Shown one piece after another: positions 39,090 to 60,380 of a stretch of 64,000 nucleotides of DNA; the first letter of the stretch is position 1, and every line of letters starts with the position of its first letter. The notes below the pieces were generated by a model, which did not search any database, was not told where the DNA came from, and saw nothing but the letters and a program-made list of their open reading frames with translations. The stretch comes from Eledone cirrhosa (taxonomy: Eukaryota), in NCBI GenBank assembly GCA_964016885.1, contig OZ024753.1:13950001-14014000 (forward strand), read 5' to 3'. Both the position numbers and the translations under genes were made by a program.

Positions 39090-41510
39090 TCAAGATTGTA
39101 AATGAGGGTTGTCATATATCTGTGACTGTTGAGATCCATAGTCGGATGAGGACGAATAACTTTCGTTTGCGTTAAGACTACCGTATTTGTGCGCACCACC
39201 CATTCGTGACATTGCTTCAATTCTTAATAGCTTGTCCCTTATGCTTTTCTCACTCTCAGACGACAGAGATTCAGTCTCAGTTTTCGTAAATCTATGAAAT
39301 AAATTTTGAAATCTATTCTTTTTTAACGATGTATTTGAAAGGACTCTATGAGATTTTCTCAAAGACCTGGTCACGTCATTTTCGGGATATGTCGTTCTCC
39401 ACACTTTCTGCTTATATTCATTTAATATCGCATCCCTTTTTTCCTGTATGTGTTTCGGCAATTCTGACATATCTGATGATAGACAATGAGATGATGGTCT
39501 GTCTAAAGCATGGTGCAGACAAAAATAATCGTCTCCTTCATTCAGCAGATCAACAACTGTACTCACGTTTTTCAAATGTATCTCCGACTTCTTTTTCCTG
39601 ATCTTATGATGTACTAAAATCCAATGAATGCCAATAAAAGGCAAATAAAAGAAGAAGAATAAATTTATAACAAACAACATCTTTCTTGACAGAGCACGAA
39701 CTCTTTCTTTAGTTTTTGGGTGTCTTGGGTAACCGTAATCGTTGTACTCTACATCTTTATTTTCAATATCTTTATCGAAATATTTTGTCTGAAAGTTGCT
39801 TTTTATGAAGACGCACAGCCCAACTTCGCCAATGTAAAGGGGGAAACAAAGGCCAAAGAACACTTTTAGCAAGTTAAGTATCATACAGAAAATCAAGAGC
39901 GCGAAAATAATAACACATGTATCGACGCTATAAAGTATCATTGGAGGATAAATCACTTTCGTTGTTTTGACTTCGCATATATATTTTGGACCACAACTAC
40001 ATTCACAACCGTCCAAGCAAACACAAATATTATTTTCTTCTAAAGTAATATACTTCGATTTCACCGTTTTCTGATCTTCGTTCCATAATTCTAATATACA
40101 TTGCATCGGTATCAGAGTTTTGTCAGAGCTTTCAACGACCATGTCATTATTTTCTCTGTCAACAATTAAATCGATGATTTGATAAAATACCACAGTTTCT
40201 GCTTCCAATGGTGCCAAAGTAGATACCTTGAACTGTTTATCAGGTTCGCAGTTCAATGATAGTTTAAAATGTCCTGTAACTAGTCCTTTATTGATTATAT
40301 TTATACCAATCTCATATTGGTTGTCTTCGTCTGAAAATGGGTGACTATACACAGTTCCAATAGCACCTTCACTTAACAATGGAACAGCGGAAGGAAGAAG
40401 TTTTTTGTTAAGATTTATGATAATATCTAGCTGTGCTTTAACAGAATGCTTCACATTTTCTGTGAATAACATTGATATATTTGGCATCCAGCCAGGAATT
40501 GATCCAATATAAGGAGGTATTGGTTTGATAAAATGCGATAGGAAATATTTTGATTTGTCAATAGTGTCAATGTTGTTAGATTTCTTGAGATGGTCGTCAA
40601 GCCAGAAACTCAGAGGCTGATTCTTGAAACATGTTTTAACAAAGGAATCTAAACAAAGGTCTTTCTTTTGCAAAATAGTTTCGGCTAATATTCCAGTTGT
40701 TCCGCACGAGATTCCATTTAAATCAAAGAACTTCTTCTTAATAAGCAAGTACTCATCAACGCCCCCCAAGGTCTGTTGTGTCTGTATACTTTTCTCTTTT
40801 ACTGATGAACTTGCAACAGGTATCAATAAATATGATACATTTGAACATATCGATCTTTGACAAGTAATATTTGGCTGCCGAATAACGCGGGCCGTGAAAT
40901 GAAGGTCATTGCTTTGTTCATCGACAGTTTTACCGTGAACAAGCAAACGACTGCTTTTCACGAAACTTTCGCTCTCTAAGTTTCCTCCATTATCTGAGTC
41001 CCTTCTAAAGACCTCTACCACAAGGTTTTGAATAATTTTAGGGATGCCGAGCGTATTAACAGAATACCATAAAGGGTCATATAAAACGCAACGAATCTGA
41101 ACATTTAACGGACAACAGTACCCTTTAATTTTGTAGGAACTGCTACCTTTACTATATTTCTGGCAGAAATTGACGAAAGGCTGCTTCTCATCACATGTTT
41201 CATTGAAAACCATTTCGTATGGTTGGTTGTTGACGAATTGCAAAAACTCGAGAGGATAACCGACTATTGCATCGGAAAAATGGAAGCGTAGTATTAATGC
41301 ATCTTTAAAATAAAAGAATTGGTTTGTCGACAAATCAATCATTGTTTCAACTTCGTAGAAACGACCGTAGTTCCAGTGATCAGAATTGCTTATCTCTGCC
41401 AGAAGTTGTAGGGTCAGAAATCGATGGCGATTTGACTTTAAACGTTCCTCGTCTGAATGATGTAGAAGGACGGTAAAAACATATGCGCTTAGCAATGTCT
41501 GTAACTTCAT
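39090..41510 (-). CDS. HAP2: HAP2/GCS1 (hapless 2)-like class II fusogen, ~806 aa, single coding exon
   Basis: Signal-peptide-like MKLQTLLSAYVFTVLL (ATG 41510); YPLEFLQFVNNQPYE; GYCC...RCVLYDPLWY; HAP2-GCS1 signature EYLLIKKKFFDLNGISCGTTG...C...TCFKNQPLSFWLDD; domain III INKGLVTGHF...C...C; CVCLDGCECSC stem; TM; animal-type YNDYGYPRHPKTKERVR..FVINLFFFFYLP; basic tail. Confidence 0.88.
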   Translation of the reverse strand: MKLQTLLSAYVFTVLLHHSDEERLKSNRHRFLTLQLLAEISNSDHWNYGRFYEVETMIDLSTNQFFYFKDALILRFHFSDAIVGYPLEFLQFVNNQPYEMVFNETCDEKQPFVNFCQKYSKGSSSYKIKGYCCPLNVQIRCVLYDPLWYSVNTLGIPKIIQNLVVEVFRRDSDNGGNLESESFVKSSRLLVHGKTVDEQSNDLHFTARVIRQPNITCQRSICSNVSYLLIPVASSSVKEKSIQTQQTLGGVDEYLLIKKKFFDLNGISCGTTGILAETILQKKDLCLDSFVKTCFKNQPLSFWLDDHLKKSNNIDTIDKSKYFLSHFIKPIPPYIGSIPGWMPNISMLFTENVKHSVKAQLDIIINLNKKLLPSAVPLLSEGAIGTVYSHPFSDEDNQYEIGINIINKGLVTGHFKLSLNCEPDKQFKVSTLAPLEAETVVFYQIIDLIVDRENNDMVVESSDKTLIPMQCILELWNEDQKTVKSKYITLEENNICVCLDGCECSCGPKYICEVKTTKVIYPPMILYSVDTCVIIFALLIFCMILNLLKVFFGLCFPLYIGEVGLCVFIKSNFQTKYFDKDIENKDVEYNDYGYPRHPKTKERVRALSRKMLFVINLFFFFYLPFIGIHWILVHHKIRKKKSEIHLKNVSTVVDLLNEGDDYFCLHHALDRPSSHCLSSDMSELPKHIQEKRDAILNEYKQKVWRTTYPENDVTRSLRKSHRVLSNTSLKKNRFQNLFHRFTKTETESLSSESEKSIRDKLLRIEAMSRMGGAHKYGSLNANESYSSSSDYGSQQSQIYDNPHLQS

Positions 41511-42718
41511 AATTCCACCATATTTAATGAAATTAAAATTATCAACAATGTTTGATTGGACAGCGAGCAAGACAGAAGAAGGAAAAGAAACAAGAACAAA
41601 TATATATATATGTGTGTATATATATCGAATTATGCAAATAAGCATACGAGAAATGAAAAGCAAAAGGCTTACTGGTTGATATACCTGCAAAAAGCTGGAT
41701 TATTGGCTATTATGTTCATATTAATATCCATCCTTCATAAAAATGTCAGTCAGTTGGAAATATTGCGTTCGTTTGGCGTCATTCTTTATTTCAAATGACT
41801 TATCTCCTCTTCTCAACGCTGCTATTTTTGAATTCGATTCTCAAGCAGTACTGTTGATAAAATAATTGGTTCTCAATAACTACACGGTATAACATTGTTG
41901 ATTTTCCCCTACTTCTCAGGGCAAGACACCGGAACGGAATAATGAGGAGCTATTTTTGATTTTACTAACGTATCTCCTACACATGGTAATTTTTATATTT
42001 ATTTGTGTTCTTATGTGTATGAAGGAGGGTGGGGGCGGGTGATATTGTCGTTTAGCCCTAGGTCAGTCCTGGTTGGGCGACCTATGATCAAAGGTTTAAC
42101 GGTAAGGATGAATCTCCACGGATATGTTTGTTTTCTTTTTTTGTCTGCTATCTTATATGAAAAACTATATAATCCACTGTCTTCATAGACATCATTTTAA
42201 AGATGGTAGCATCAGATTTAAGGATGTTATTTCTAACAGGCCATGTGACCAAATTGATGTTCCGAGCTCCGGGTTATATATCATTGTTTGTCATATTTTG
42301 TGGGAAATTGGCAAGATGGATTTTACCCGCCATGTCTAGTTTTGTCACACTTGTGTCACGCTGAATCTCCCTGAGAATTACCTTAAAGGTGCACGTGTCT
42401 GTGGAATACTCAGCCACTTGCACGTGAATTTCATGAGTAGGCTATGCCGTTGACTGAACTATTACTTCTTCGGCCGAGTTTACACTCGCAAAGATTCAGC
42501 ACGCCCTCACCAATCGTCCCGGTCGTGTATGACATTTCTCAGTTCATCGAGTGCGTGTGCGTGTCTGTGTGTGTGTGTCTCTGTGTCTGTGTGTGTGTGT
42601 GTGTGTGTGTGTACATTTCCCAAATCTATTTTAAACACATAAATACATGAATCTCTCATATTTGCAATCCAAACCTACATTTCATGTCCTAACTGTTTAG
42701 GTGGTCACTCCAAGAACA

Positions 42719-43172
42719 CAAACACACAGCTATCTTACTATCACCAACATTCTGACCACTACTACAAACACACAGCTATCTTACTATCACCAACGTACTG
42801 ACCACTACTACAAACACACAGCTATCTTACTATCACCAACGTACTGACCACTACTACAAACACACAGCTATCTTACTATCACCAACGTACTGACCACTAC
42901 TACAAACACACAGCTATCTTACTATCACCAACGTACTGACCACTACTACAAACACACAGCTATCTTACTATCACCAACATACTGACCACTACTACAAACA
43001 CACAGCTATCTTACTATCACCAAAATACTGACCACTACTACAAACACACAGCTATCTTACTATCACCAACATACTGACCACTACTACAAACACACAGCTA
43101 TCTTACTATCACCAACGTACTGACCACTACTACAAACACACAGCTATCTTAGTATCACCAGCATGTTGACCA
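42719..43172. repeat. Minisatellite, 46-bp unit, ~10 copies
   Basis: acaaacacacagctatcttactatcaccaacgtactgaccactact repeated. Confidence 0.95.
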
Positions 43173-52577: not shown

Positions 52578-53804
52578 TAACTTTGAATAACTTTGAAATG
52601 TTTTGGCCAGTATTGGCCCAGGCCATGTCTAACTTAATAGCACCACCTGGCGAAGTCTTTCAATTCAGGATTTGGGCACCATGGCCCATTCGAGAAGAGA
52701 ATTACTGTTTGCGGAGACATATCCGGGTGTGTGTGGTTTGTCCGGGATTACTTGGAGGAATTTGTCCAAAGACTTCTTGAATTTTGTGTGGTCAGTTTCT
52801 GTTTTGACGTGTCCTGGTGTGATGTTGAAGAGAGCAGGGCCGATTGAGGTGAAATAATTGTGCCGTATTGTTGTTATGAGTTGCGATTTAGATTTTTGAA
52901 TGGGACGGATAGCACGGGGCCCAAGCCTTGGGTGTATCTTGAAGGCGATGCCAACATCATTTGGGCAGTGATGATGGAACATTTTCCACATCATGCAGAT
53001 AATATAACGCTCACGGCGACGTTGGAGTGAGTAAAGTTTCAGGTTTTCTAGTCGACCCCAGTAGTCAAGGTCTGACATGCCATCTATCTTTTTCGTGATT
53101 GCCCTTTGAGGAGCTTCAAGTTTCATGATACTTTGTTTCGTGTGGGGAGACCACAGTGGACAACAGTATTCAAGGTGTGGTCGGGCAAAAGTAGAGAACA
53201 GAAGGATAATGGTGTGGGAATCTCTCGACTGGAAGGTTCTGAGGATCCAGGAACACATTCTGCGGGCCATGTCAACTTTGCTGCTTATATGCGTGGCCCA
53301 GCTTATGTTGCTGTCCACGGTTACTCCCAAGTCTCTGATGTTGTTAGATGCCATGAGAGTTTCCCCGGAGGGAAGGGAGTACGGGAGTTTCAGAGCATCC
53401 TCTTTTCCAAAGTGGATCAGTTCGAATTTGTCTTCGTTCAGTAACATGTTGTTCTTTTCCGCCCATTGGGTAACAGCCAGTAGGTCTGACTGAAGGCTTA
53501 TCCGGTCATCCACGCCATTGATGACCTTTTGGAGCTTGGAATCATCAGCGAAAATTTTAATGTTGCTGTGTTTGATGATGCCAGTGATGTCATTAATATA
53601 GATGATGAAGAGAAGTGGGCCCAACACAGTGCCTTGTGGGACCCCCACTACTGACTTTGGCTGGGCTGGATTTGACTCCTTCAACTACAACATGTTGGGT
53701 TCTATTTGACAGGAAGCTCTTGATCCACTGCAGCAGCTTTCCAGTGACACCAATATTGGACAGCTTTCTCAGTAGAATGTTATGATCAACCCTGTCAAAG
53801 GCCT
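52578..53804 (-). mobile_element. CR1-type LINE family B, 5'-truncated copy (in GOLIM4 intron)
   Basis: ORF 52665-53684 near-identical to the other family B copies; same tail. Confidence 0.95.
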
Positions 53805-57915: not shown

Positions 57916-60380
57916 ATCATCATCATCATCATCATTTTACGTCCGCTTTTACCTGTTTGCAAGGGTGGCACGGGTCTTATTCAGCACAGCATCTCTCCAC
58001 TTGTCACGGTCTTTCGTCATCTCCACCGTGAGCTTCAGCGATCTGAGGTCTGCTCTCACCACCTCCACCCATGTTTTTCGTGGTCTTCCTTCATCCTTCA
58101 ACTGGTATTTCCTGGCACTTCTTTACCCAACGGTCATCCTCCATGCACATCACATGTCCAAACCATCACAGTCTCCTCCCCCGCACACTACAATTATCCC
58201 TCTCAGACACAGTTTCTTTCTCAACACATCCATGCTTGGTCGTTCACGCACATTGACATTGCACATCCAACGGAGCATGCTTGCCTCATTTCTCTCCAGC
58301 TGTCGCATATTCTCTGCAGTTGCTGCCTATGTCTCACTACCATGCAACATTGCGCTCTTCACACAGGCATCATATAACTGGCCTTTCGTACGCAGGGAGA
58401 AACTCTTCTTCGTCAGCAGAGGAAGCAGCTCCCTAAACTTCTTTCAACCCGTCCTTATTCTAGATACTATGGCCTCGGATCACCCCCCTCCCATGCTAAT
58501 CTGATCACCTAGGTACCAGAAGCTATCAACCACTTCTATTGCACTCACCTTTATTTGAAAAATGTGTCTATCAATGCAACTTCTACTGTCAAATTTCCCT
58601 GTACATCTACTGCATAAGTATTTCTCTCTACCTGTTAGTTTGCCTGCTATCCCACTACATATCTTGTGTACCCAAGATGTGCATTGTGTACATTTTATAG
58701 AATGCACCAGTTCCTTTTCTGCATATTAAACATGGTCATTTCCCTGACGGAATCAGAGTTTTGTCCTCTTTTCTACTCATCAACACTTAGCTGGGTTCAC
58801 TCTCAGTCTTGCTTCCAACTGCTGTTACCATAGCCAGAATTTATTCTCTAGCTCCTTTACTGATTCTGCTATAAGAACCAGATCGTCAGCATAGAGAAGT
58901 TCCCATGGACAGCCAGTCTTAAACTCCTCTGTTATGGCTTGGAGGACTATAATGAACAAGAGCGGGTTGAGGACTGAACCCTGATGTACTCCTACTTGTA
59001 TCTGGAATTCCTCACTAAACTCCATTCCTACCCTCACTCTACTGACAGCACATCTGTACAAAGCTTGCACTGTCCTCACAAGCCATTCCTCAACTCCTAG
59101 TTTCCTTAGGGACCACCAGATGACAGATTGGGGTACCCTATCAAAGGCCTTCTCTAGGTCAATAAAAGCTAAGTATAGTGGCTTATTCTTCTCTAAGAAC
59201 CTCTCTTGTAATTGTCTCACTACGAAGAGGGCATCTGTTGTACTTTTCCCAGGCACAAAACCAAACTGCATCTCATATAGTTTGACCCTTTCTCTAATTA
59301 GTTGTGCTAACATCCTTTCTGCCACTTTCATAATCTGATCCATCAGTTTTATGGTCCTATAATTGCTCCTCTCCAGAGCATCCCCTTTACCTTTGTAGCA
59401 ATTTATGAGAATACTGCTGCACCAGTCTTTGGGTATGACATTGCTATATATAGCCTGATTGATGATGCGTGCAACCAGTTTAGTGCCTACATCCCCTGAT
59501 GCCTTCAGCATCTCAGCAACTATCCCTGACAGTCCAGCGGCCTTACCATATTTCATTTCCTTAATTGCCTCTTGGACCCTATATTCATCAATCTTAGTAG
59601 CTGGTCCCTCTGTCGGATCTACTGGGGTGTAATTTCTCTCTCTCCCATTCGTTCTCCACATTCACCAATCTCTCATAATGACATTTCCAGGCCTCCTTTT
59701 TCTGATCATTCATGCCATTAAGTACACCGGCATCATACCAGACACATTTATCTCCAACAACATCCTGATTTGCACTGACACACTGCCTTGCAATGCAGAA
59801 TACCGCATGTTTCTGATCTTCCCGTCGCAGAACATTGGCAAACCTCCTTCTCTCAGCCTCCCTGTGTGCTAAGTACACCTGACGTCTAGCTTCTCTCTTA
59901 GCGGCTGTATATCCTTCTCTACTCCCACCATTTTTCCAAGCATTACATGCTAGTCTTTTATCTCTAATGGCCTTATCTACTGTGCTGTTCCACCACCAGG
60001 TCACTCTTTGTCTGGTTGGAGCTCTGCTCCAGCCACAATTTTCTTCATTAGCCTGCAGTAAGTTGTCACGTAAGAAATTGCAGTTATCATCTATGTCATA
60101 CAACTCTAAATCATCTTCTTTTTCATCATACACATCTTGAAGGGCTTTCCTAAATTTATATTTTAGTGAAAGGTCTTTTAGCTTTCTTCGCCACACCTTC
60201 CTGTATGTCTCATTCTGTCTCTTGCTTACTGAGATATCACTAATGACTAACCTATGCTGTGGGGTACATTCTTCCCTGGGGTATGCCTTGGTATTTGACA
60301 CCATCTGTCTGTCCCGCTGCCTAACTAACAAGAAGTCAATCTGGCTTATGTGCTCGCCTGATTTGTAGGTTATTAGGTGT
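57916..60380 (-). mobile_element. 5'-truncated RTE-clade LINE (APE end, RT, PHD finger, C-terminus), degraded
   Basis: QIDF, PQHRLV, TWWWN, NYRTIKL, QFGF, FIDLEKAFDRV, GVHQGSVL, YADD, DSFWYLGD; (GAT)n tail; frameshifts and stops. Confidence 0.92.

Follow-up and report, generated by a model that had tools for sequence, protein, structure and literature searches.

It is not settled whether HAP2 merges membranes by one-sided insertion of its loops or by a two-sided mechanism in which proteins act as partners (PMC6504885, PMC8777248). A gene in the octopod Eledone cirrhosa raises this question directly. We analyzed a stretch of 64,000 nucleotides (the window; contig OZ024753.1 of assembly GCA_964016885.1, positions 13,950,001 to 14,014,000 of the forward strand) that contains a single-exon open reading frame (ORF) for a HAP2/GCS1 protein. 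An earlier note on this DNA had described an intact fusogen. We found that the protein lacks the cd fusion loops together with the conserved Arg and a pair of conserved Cys, and that the equivalents of Chlamydomonas F376 and Q379 are changed. The note had missed both this absent segment (seven residues remain from GYCC to the strand-d Cys) and a second copy of the gene. The loop-less form of HAP2, not the presence of HAP2 in an octopus, is the new element.

Loss of the fusion-loop segment

HAP2/GCS1 structures are known from Chlamydomonas, Arabidopsis, Trypanosoma cruzi and Cyanidioschyzon (PDB 5MF1/6DBS/6E18, 5OW3, 5OW4, 7S0K). In these structures the segment that links strands c and d carries the fusion loops. 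It spans ~40 residues in Chlamydomonas, where the conserved Arg (R185) is the partner of E126 and docks onto F376, Q379 and the carbonyls of 382 and 389 in the ij loop (PMC5332557, PMC6089408, PMC6170185). The Arg-docking site itself is given as E126, Q379 and the carbonyls of 382 and 389 (PMC6170185). Nine tip residues (seven Cys, one Glu and one Arg) are described as invariant across eukaryotes (PMC6089408). The Glu-Arg salt bridge is E126-R185 in Chlamydomonas and E117-R163 in Arabidopsis. We located the tip residues on our alignment via a profile-to-PDB alignment; the match to the seven Cys of PMC6089408 is our own reading.

We compared the cd connection in the 42 of 79 aligned rows that have the flanking Cys in place, dropping 37 that do not cover the region or are misaligned there. 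The connection is seven residues long in the window protein, in its paralogue and in the Logan protein P0003. It measures 11 residues in two ticks, 12 in P0104 and P0116, and 25-502 in the other 35 rows. A strict Arg motif, R-[GAS]-x2-3-C, is found in 31/42 rows. In the window protein the segment that would carry the Arg is deleted, and the Glu (E99) is kept. Five tip Cys are present (106, 116, 132, 133 and 141), and the two that lie inside the cd connection, a disulfide pair, have been lost together; their columns hold Cys in 39/49 and 45/54 rows. This joint loss has the appearance of a clean excision. Domain I also lacks its N-terminal Cys pair. The first part of the bc loop, from the Glu to the Cys, is short as well (6, 6 and 8 residues vs 12-13 in 28/42 rows), and four unrelated rows are equally short there. 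The features of the gene, in window coordinates, are as follows.

39090..41510, minus strand: single-exon ORF, loop-less HAP2/GCS1 orthologue, short-tail copy (PF10699 E=1.1e-25, 90.7 bits, residues 42-494)
41448..41510, minus strand: probable signal peptide, residues 1-21 (from hydropathy only, KD11 max 2.31)
39936..41447, minus strand: predicted ectodomain of the class II fusexin type (residues 22-525), made up of domains I-III and a Cys-rich stem (AlphaFold2, Foldseek, VIA)
41214..41216, minus strand: E99, the Chlamydomonas E126 equivalent, kept without its Arg partner (alignment)
41091..41111, minus strand: seven-residue cd connection, C133 to C141, without fusion loops, conserved Arg and two conserved Cys (alignment, model)
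40617..40706, minus strand: remodelled ij loop, C269-Q298, with I279 equivalent to F376 and K282 (40665-40667) equivalent to Q379 (alignment)
40638..40643, minus strand: clade-specific Phe290-Val291 in an ij segment one residue longer, candidate new tip surface of inferred role (4/61 rows)
40035..40367, minus strand: domain III, Ig-like (VIA to P. berghei HAP2 D3, 7lr4)
39858..39914, minus strand: first transmembrane helix, residues 533-551 (hydropathy)
39696..39803, minus strand: post-transmembrane block common to animal HAP2s (motif in 54/117 stored proteins, alignment)
39624..39680, minus strand: second hydrophobic helix, residues 611-629 (hydropathy)
39093..39620, minus strand: 176-residue tail resembling Octopus vulgaris CAI9731296.1 (42% over 116 residues, E=1e-24)
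41406..41940, minus strand: upstream region and first 35 codons, near-identical to the second copy (420/427 and 100/105 nucleotides identical)

The site on which the Arg would dock is remodelled. The F376 column holds Phe in 59/63 rows and Ile or Val in the three octopod proteins; the Q379 column holds Gln in 54/63 rows and Lys in exactly these three. P0003 has Asn at the Q379 column and has lost the Glu too. Between the next two Cys, the ij segment consists of six mostly polar residues in 54/61 rows. Only the four members of the clade described below have seven residues there, and these include an invariant Phe-Val. This pattern suggests that the Arg-docking site changed in step with the loss of the Arg and was then conserved.

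In the AlphaFold2 model a short turn joins the strands across the cd gap (block pLDDT 91). Its sequence is not conserved among the three proteins that span the region, none of which has an aromatic residue there. None of the marks of a canonical loop-inserting HAP2 (the seven tip Cys, the Glu-Arg bridge, a hydrophobic cd loop, the ij Phe and Gln) is complete in the window protein. Because the force-generating parts (domains I-III, the Cys-rich stem and the anchor) appear to be kept, while the lipid-gripping part is deleted and its docking site apparently rebuilt, we do not class the protein as a canonical loop-inserting HAP2 fusogen, though it is a HAP2 by descent.

Relationship to molluscan HAP2 proteins

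The ORF runs from an ATG at 41510 to a TGA at 39090. It encodes 806 amino acids without a stop or frameshift, as the earlier note had reported without giving the strand. The chance of 806 stop-free codons is ~1e-26 at the base composition of the window. All HAP2 motifs quoted in that note are in the translation, which contains YPLEFLQFVNNQPYE, GYCC and CVLYDPLWY as well as EYLL..DLNGISC..C..CFKNQP..W.D and YNDYGYPRHPKTKERVR..INLFFF. PF10699 (HAP2-GCS1) is the only Pfam family found at E up to 1, with a score far above its cut-off of 27.4 bits.

We searched 1.84 billion representative proteins with HMMER and obtained 105 matches at E up to 0.001; names were looked up for 30 proteins. The best matches were O. 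vulgaris CAI9731296.1 (P0002, 50% identity) and P0003 (36%), followed by proteins of Solemya, Lineus, Pecten and arthropods at 23-32%. The O. vulgaris entry is already named a HAP2-domain protein by automatic annotation, and 'hapless 2-like' entries exist for bivalves and nemerteans. HAP2 in molluscs and in O. vulgaris is therefore not new at the database level. HAP2 orthologues have been reported in almost all metazoans (PMC6826153). A search of the literature, whose coverage leaves out subscription journals and theses, yielded no account of HAP2 in cephalopods or of a natural HAP2 without loops, and PMC7688107 and PMC13601591 added none.

In a tree of 23 rows, the window protein groups with its paralogue, P0002 and P0003 in a clade (support 100/100) on a long stem (1.09). 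This clade nests among eight molluscan-type rows that include Solemya, Pecten, Mytilus and P0006 (96/98). A quick tree of 38 rows agrees, with a stem branch of 1.09-1.18 across trees; the branching order of the three octopod proteins differs between them. From its tree neighbours we infer that P0003 is another cephalopod protein. The trees indicate that the window ORF is a vertically inherited molluscan HAP2/GCS1 orthologue, and the animal origin proposed in the earlier note holds. Both the window protein and the 'hapless 2-like' proteins of other lophotrochozoans (Solemya KAL5009314.1, Pecten XP_033735139.1, Mytilus CAC5374079.1 and Lineus XP_064623729.1) have the post-transmembrane block and second helix. 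These proteins are the nearest loop-bearing relatives (26-28% identity) and differ by a cd loop of 27-38 residues with an R-G-G-Q-x-C type motif. P0002 and P0003 both have the Phe-Val ij segment. P0003 differs from the window protein in keeping a conserved C-terminal domain. The cd region of P0002 is not visible, since this protein is annotated from residue 245.

The fold is predicted to be that of a three-domain class II fusogen. An AlphaFold2 model of residues 22-525, built with 79 sequences, has a mean pLDDT of 84.2 and a pTM of 0.72. Its eight best Foldseek rows are all HAP2 structures (7s0k, E=3.8e-22), followed by Fsx1, hantavirus Gc and EFF-1. Comparison by VIA gave Z 19.8 against 7s0k (root-mean-square deviation, rmsd, 8.3; 405 residues aligned), Z 16.5 against T. 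cruzi domain II (5ow4; rmsd 2.8, 196 aligned) and Z 12.2 against Plasmodium berghei domain III (7lr4; rmsd 2.0, 92 aligned). Domain III, the stem Cys and the membrane helices are kept in all four clade proteins. Of the architecture claimed in the earlier note, the ectodomain is recovered in the model and two membrane segments are clear by hydropathy (533-551, KD19 2.77; 611-629, KD19 1.99), with a weaker one between them around 550-568 (1.95). The signal peptide is less distinct, corresponding to a modest hydrophobic stretch that peaks at residue 6. A basic cluster follows the last membrane segment.

The sensitivity of sequence searches varied widely. Searching PDB sequences with the window protein alone gave no match, and a profile search gave six HAP2 sequences. 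A word-seeded protein search found nothing with the full protein and nothing with a four-sequence alignment, though two of its members are in the collection; with residues 540-640 it found only P0002. Since these searches are nearly blind, our view of how widely cephalopods carry the variant is based on four sequences.

A second loop-less copy and evidence for selection

The genome contains a second single-exon copy (G000:C1061:18929-6513, minus strand) that is 63% identical over residues 1-684, scores 90.7 bits against PF10699 and has the same loop-less tip. Its frame is open for 4,138 codons, a predicted coding sequence of 12.4 kb. The ectodomain and helices are followed by a Gly-Pro-Ser-rich stretch, ~1,800 residues with a 17-residue period and a C-terminal domain of ~100 residues. 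The tail as a whole is ~3,500 residues long and rich in Ser, Arg, Glu and Gln, with 6/12- and 17-residue periods; it is far above the 500-plus residue tails cited for HAP2.

P0003 carries the C-terminal domain as well, as do HAP2s of bivalves, nemerteans and brachiopods (11 stored proteins, E up to 1e-3). The domain is absent from the window copy and P0002, which have a short tail in common, and we found no remnant of it in the window. The domain (G000:C1061:6516-6845) models at pLDDT 90. It matches no Pfam family and has no Foldseek match at E up to 0.001; its structural likenesses are weak (Atlas best 0.78; VIA best Z 4.8, rmsd 2.4, 57 aligned, to Tudor/Sm-like barrels).

The two copies are 98% identical over the 427 nucleotides upstream and 95% identical over the 105 nucleotides of the first 35 codons. 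Identity drops to 158/199 (79%) just downstream. This step makes recent gene conversion likely. A run of 66 nucleotides of the shared 5' block also matches G000:C15:25859390-25859455 at 94%. Outside the gene the copies share only repeats. We considered and rejected the possibility that the second copy is an allele of the window, given the 63% protein identity and the lack of long shared flanks other than repeats.

We estimated the ratio of nonsynonymous to synonymous substitution (dN/dS) over codons 36-645, where 605 codons could be compared. The ratio between these two copies of one genome is 0.54 (bootstrap 0.43-0.68; 0/1000 at or above 1) at a dS of 0.43. In a neutral simulation at half this dS, 20 stops arose on average and 0/1000 frames stayed open. 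Most blocks gave 0.30-0.51, residues 350-520 gave 0.85, and 40 codons near the first helix gave 1.2. All length differences between the copies are in frame. These values point to purifying selection on the copies, and the neutral evolution that the earlier note had named as part of a refutation is not borne out.

No third HAP2 locus was found. A PF10699 scan of the genome scored 15 candidates, of which two matched, and a strict first look with the Solemya protein gave three matches, all on the two known loci. With the C-terminal domain, one of two candidates matched, at a single locus. A DNA pattern for strand d matched once, in the long copy, and its control gave none. The bivalve cd-loop stretch gave one match at E=1.23; because it missed both known copies, this search is uninformative. 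The absence of a loop-bearing copy is likely but not proven, since searches that take one exon at a time may overlook a gene with many introns. A further frame of 1,024 codons is open at G000:C1061:53735-56806 on the minus strand.

Comparison with other fusogens and parallel losses

The window protein resembles known HAP2/GCS1 proteins in its PF10699 match, three-domain ectodomain, strand-b Glu, five tip Cys, ij-loop Cys, domain III and anchor. It differs from them in the seven-residue cd connection (about 40 in Chlamydomonas), the missing Arg185 equivalent, two tip Cys and N-terminal Cys pair, and the replaced F376 and Q379. It also has the Phe-Val, a single exon and an extra hydrophobic helix.

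Two other class II fusogens match the fold. Nematode EFF-1/AFF-1 (4OJD, E=1.3e-11), which has no bona fide fusion loop (PMC8777248), is the functional analogue we propose. It belongs to another family; the window protein has no PF14884 match and descends from HAP2, and bilateral action of the latter would be by analogy only. Archaeal Fusexin1 (7P4L, E=2.7e-12) has a very short cd loop and acts bilaterally in cell assays (PMC9259645). It differs in that its short loop is required and is Ca2+-shaped, in having a domain IV, and in not being related by descent within animals.

Loops have been shortened in other lineages. Tick HAP2-like proteins (Rhipicephalus KAL1487266.1, Ixodes CAN8032015.1) have a cd connection of 11 residues, no Arg and a changed Q379 equivalent. 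They differ from the octopod proteins in keeping both loop Cys, in lacking the Phe-Val and in their separate origin. This shortening in ticks (P0025 and P0098) is independent, and other chelicerates keep the loop. The near-identical Logan proteins P0104 and P0116 are a third loop-less type on a very long branch, with a 12-residue connection that lacks the loop Cys. A tree joining all loop-less rows was rejected (p-AU 0.00012; the group was picked from the alignment and long branches are involved), which argues that loop loss recurred. At the opposite extreme, insect HAP2-like proteins P0008 (Megachile), P0017, P0051 and P0060 are about 2,450-2,560 residues long, and the cd connection of P0008 has 1,716 residues.

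Possible modes of action

We tentatively favor a reading in which the loop-less HAP2 sits in a gamete membrane and drives or assists membrane merger via a partner protein on the opposite cell; we consider this possible, if somewhat short of probable. The partner would be gripped in place of inserting loops into the lipids of the other cell. Lys282 may fill the empty Arg pocket beside the retained Glu99, the new Phe-Val could serve as a binding patch at the exposed tip, and the fold-back of domain III would supply the force, as in EFF-1/AFF-1. Gamete expression is presumed from the family only. The short-tail and giant-tail copies may act as partners. The intron-free state of both copies suggests that they arose by retroposition, in which case the intron-containing parent would later have been lost. 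HAP2 genes of intron-rich genomes usually carry an intron in the b-c-d region (PMC6089408), so the template could have been exon-skipped. A somatic role is conceivable because squid giant axons form by cell fusion (PMC12407032). A broader version is decidedly unlikely: that in cephalopods the ancestral HAP2 gave way to a form with neither fusion loops nor introns, which converged on the two-sided mechanism of EFF-1/AFF-1, with the octopod short-tail and 4,138-residue copies as partners on opposite membranes. These membranes would belong to the two gametes, sperm and egg, or to somatic cells, for example neurons that fuse.

Several points weigh against fusion via a partner. In Chlamydomonas and Arabidopsis, mutagenesis shows that fusion fails once the Arg, its charge or residues of the loops are removed (PMC5332557, PMC6089408, PMC6170185). 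All tested HAP2 loop or Arg mutants lose most or all activity, with the exception of Tetrahymena R164A. Loop mutants of Cyanidioschyzon HAP2 trimerize poorly (PMC9279424), and the bilateral Fsx1 still needs its short loop (PMC9259645). The overall dN/dS and the long stem branch indicate relaxed constraint, and domain III alone stands at 0.85. The annotated start of P0002 at residue 245 and the missing C-terminal domain of the window copy point the same way, and an intron-rich loop-bearing copy could have escaped our searches. Hydropathy is compatible with two or three membrane helices and with the tail on either side. Fusion activity and tissue expression of the window protein are putative. 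HAP2 terms do not occur in the accessible supplement files of octopus gonad transcriptome papers, where other tables may list the locus by identifier, and no public RNA run is listed as carrying the window gene.

The trimming of all three known membrane-contact elements, the relaxed constraint, and the divergent, enlarged tails (176, about 500 and about 3,500 residues, with the 17-residue period) would fit a non-fusogenic role. The class II rod would then have been co-opted as an adhesion molecule, spacer or scaffold on sperm or another cell, with the giant tail of the second copy as its working part, and another fusogen would merge the membranes. Loop-less forms in separate long-branched lineages (ticks, P0104) are expected if the fusion duty can be dropped. 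Co-option leaves unaccounted for the retention of the fold-back parts (domain III, stem Cys, helices) in all four proteins, the new conserved tip features and the failure of the genome searches to find an alternative HAP2. We regard it as unlikely, though it deserves weight.

We consider it fairly unlikely that the deleted loops were replaced by a substitute surface, a flat tip composed of the ij Phe-Val, the short cd turn and an aromatic residue after strand b, that inserts into lipid from one side. The Phe-Val is invariant in the clade and would be uncovered, as in solved structures the cd loop rests on the segment that contains it. The tips of HAP2 proteins differ greatly: T. cruzi has three small loops, Cyanidioschyzon has a third loop in bc (PMC9279424), and Fsx1 works with a cd loop of six residues (PMC9259645). 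Yet the cd turn is neither conserved nor aromatic, the Glu-to-Cys stretch of the bc loop is short too, and the Phe-Val may merely pack into the hole left by the loop.

Slow decay of the window copy, as a redundant duplicate of a long copy that alone matters, is very unlikely. This copy is missing the C-terminal domain that the long copy, P0003 and the bivalve, nemertean and brachiopod HAP2s have kept, and P0002, whose tail is of the same kind, has a short N terminus and a long branch. The frame of the window copy is nevertheless open where about 20 stops would be expected on its branch (gene conversion could help to keep it so), its length differences from the other copy preserve the frame, and its tail has kept its likeness to that of O. 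vulgaris. An intron-free gene with a virus-like fold amid repeats might suggest contamination, a viral or mobile-element envelope gene or an assembly error that dropped the loop, but such origins are highly improbable, as the protein nests among molluscan HAP2s, the gene is joined to host repeats in raw-data contigs and lies on a 47-Mb contig, where neither terminal repeats on its flanks nor genes of a linked element were seen, and the same deletion occurs in two 63%-identical copies and in P0003.

If the broader two-sided version held, octopod HAP2 would be the first natural one demonstrated to merge membranes with no fusion loops, and fusion without loops would change the HAP2 mechanism. If the protein does not fuse, it would document one step in the disappearance of HAP2 from fertilization in animals and point to another cephalopod fusogen. 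In either case octopod HAP2 offers a natural deletion mutant, in which the only detectable genes are loop-less, apparently under selection, and equipped with new conserved tip residues. The parallel losses in ticks and in the P0104/P0116 lineage provide replicates.

Genomic surroundings of the gene

Positions 38858-41473 are identical in contigs from three public runs of one sample, which may be the sample of the assembly itself, and these contigs continue into high-copy host repeats. Together with the 47-Mb contig on which the window sits, they make contamination or a local assembly slip unlikely. We saw no clear poly-A remnant, flanking terminal repeats or linked element genes around the gene. 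The ORF is flanked by microsatellites and retroelement fragments, in keeping with the repeat-rich surroundings described in the earlier note. A minisatellite with a 46-nucleotide unit lies at 42672-42993, just upstream of the shared 5' block. Fragments of endonuclease/reverse transcriptase ORFs of the LINE type, identified by eye from translations, lie at 7201-10425, 15327-17006, 23809-26130, 52665-53684 and 58825-60379. Several are near-identical copies, and they are located between very long AT-rich microsatellite tracts (11-30 kb).

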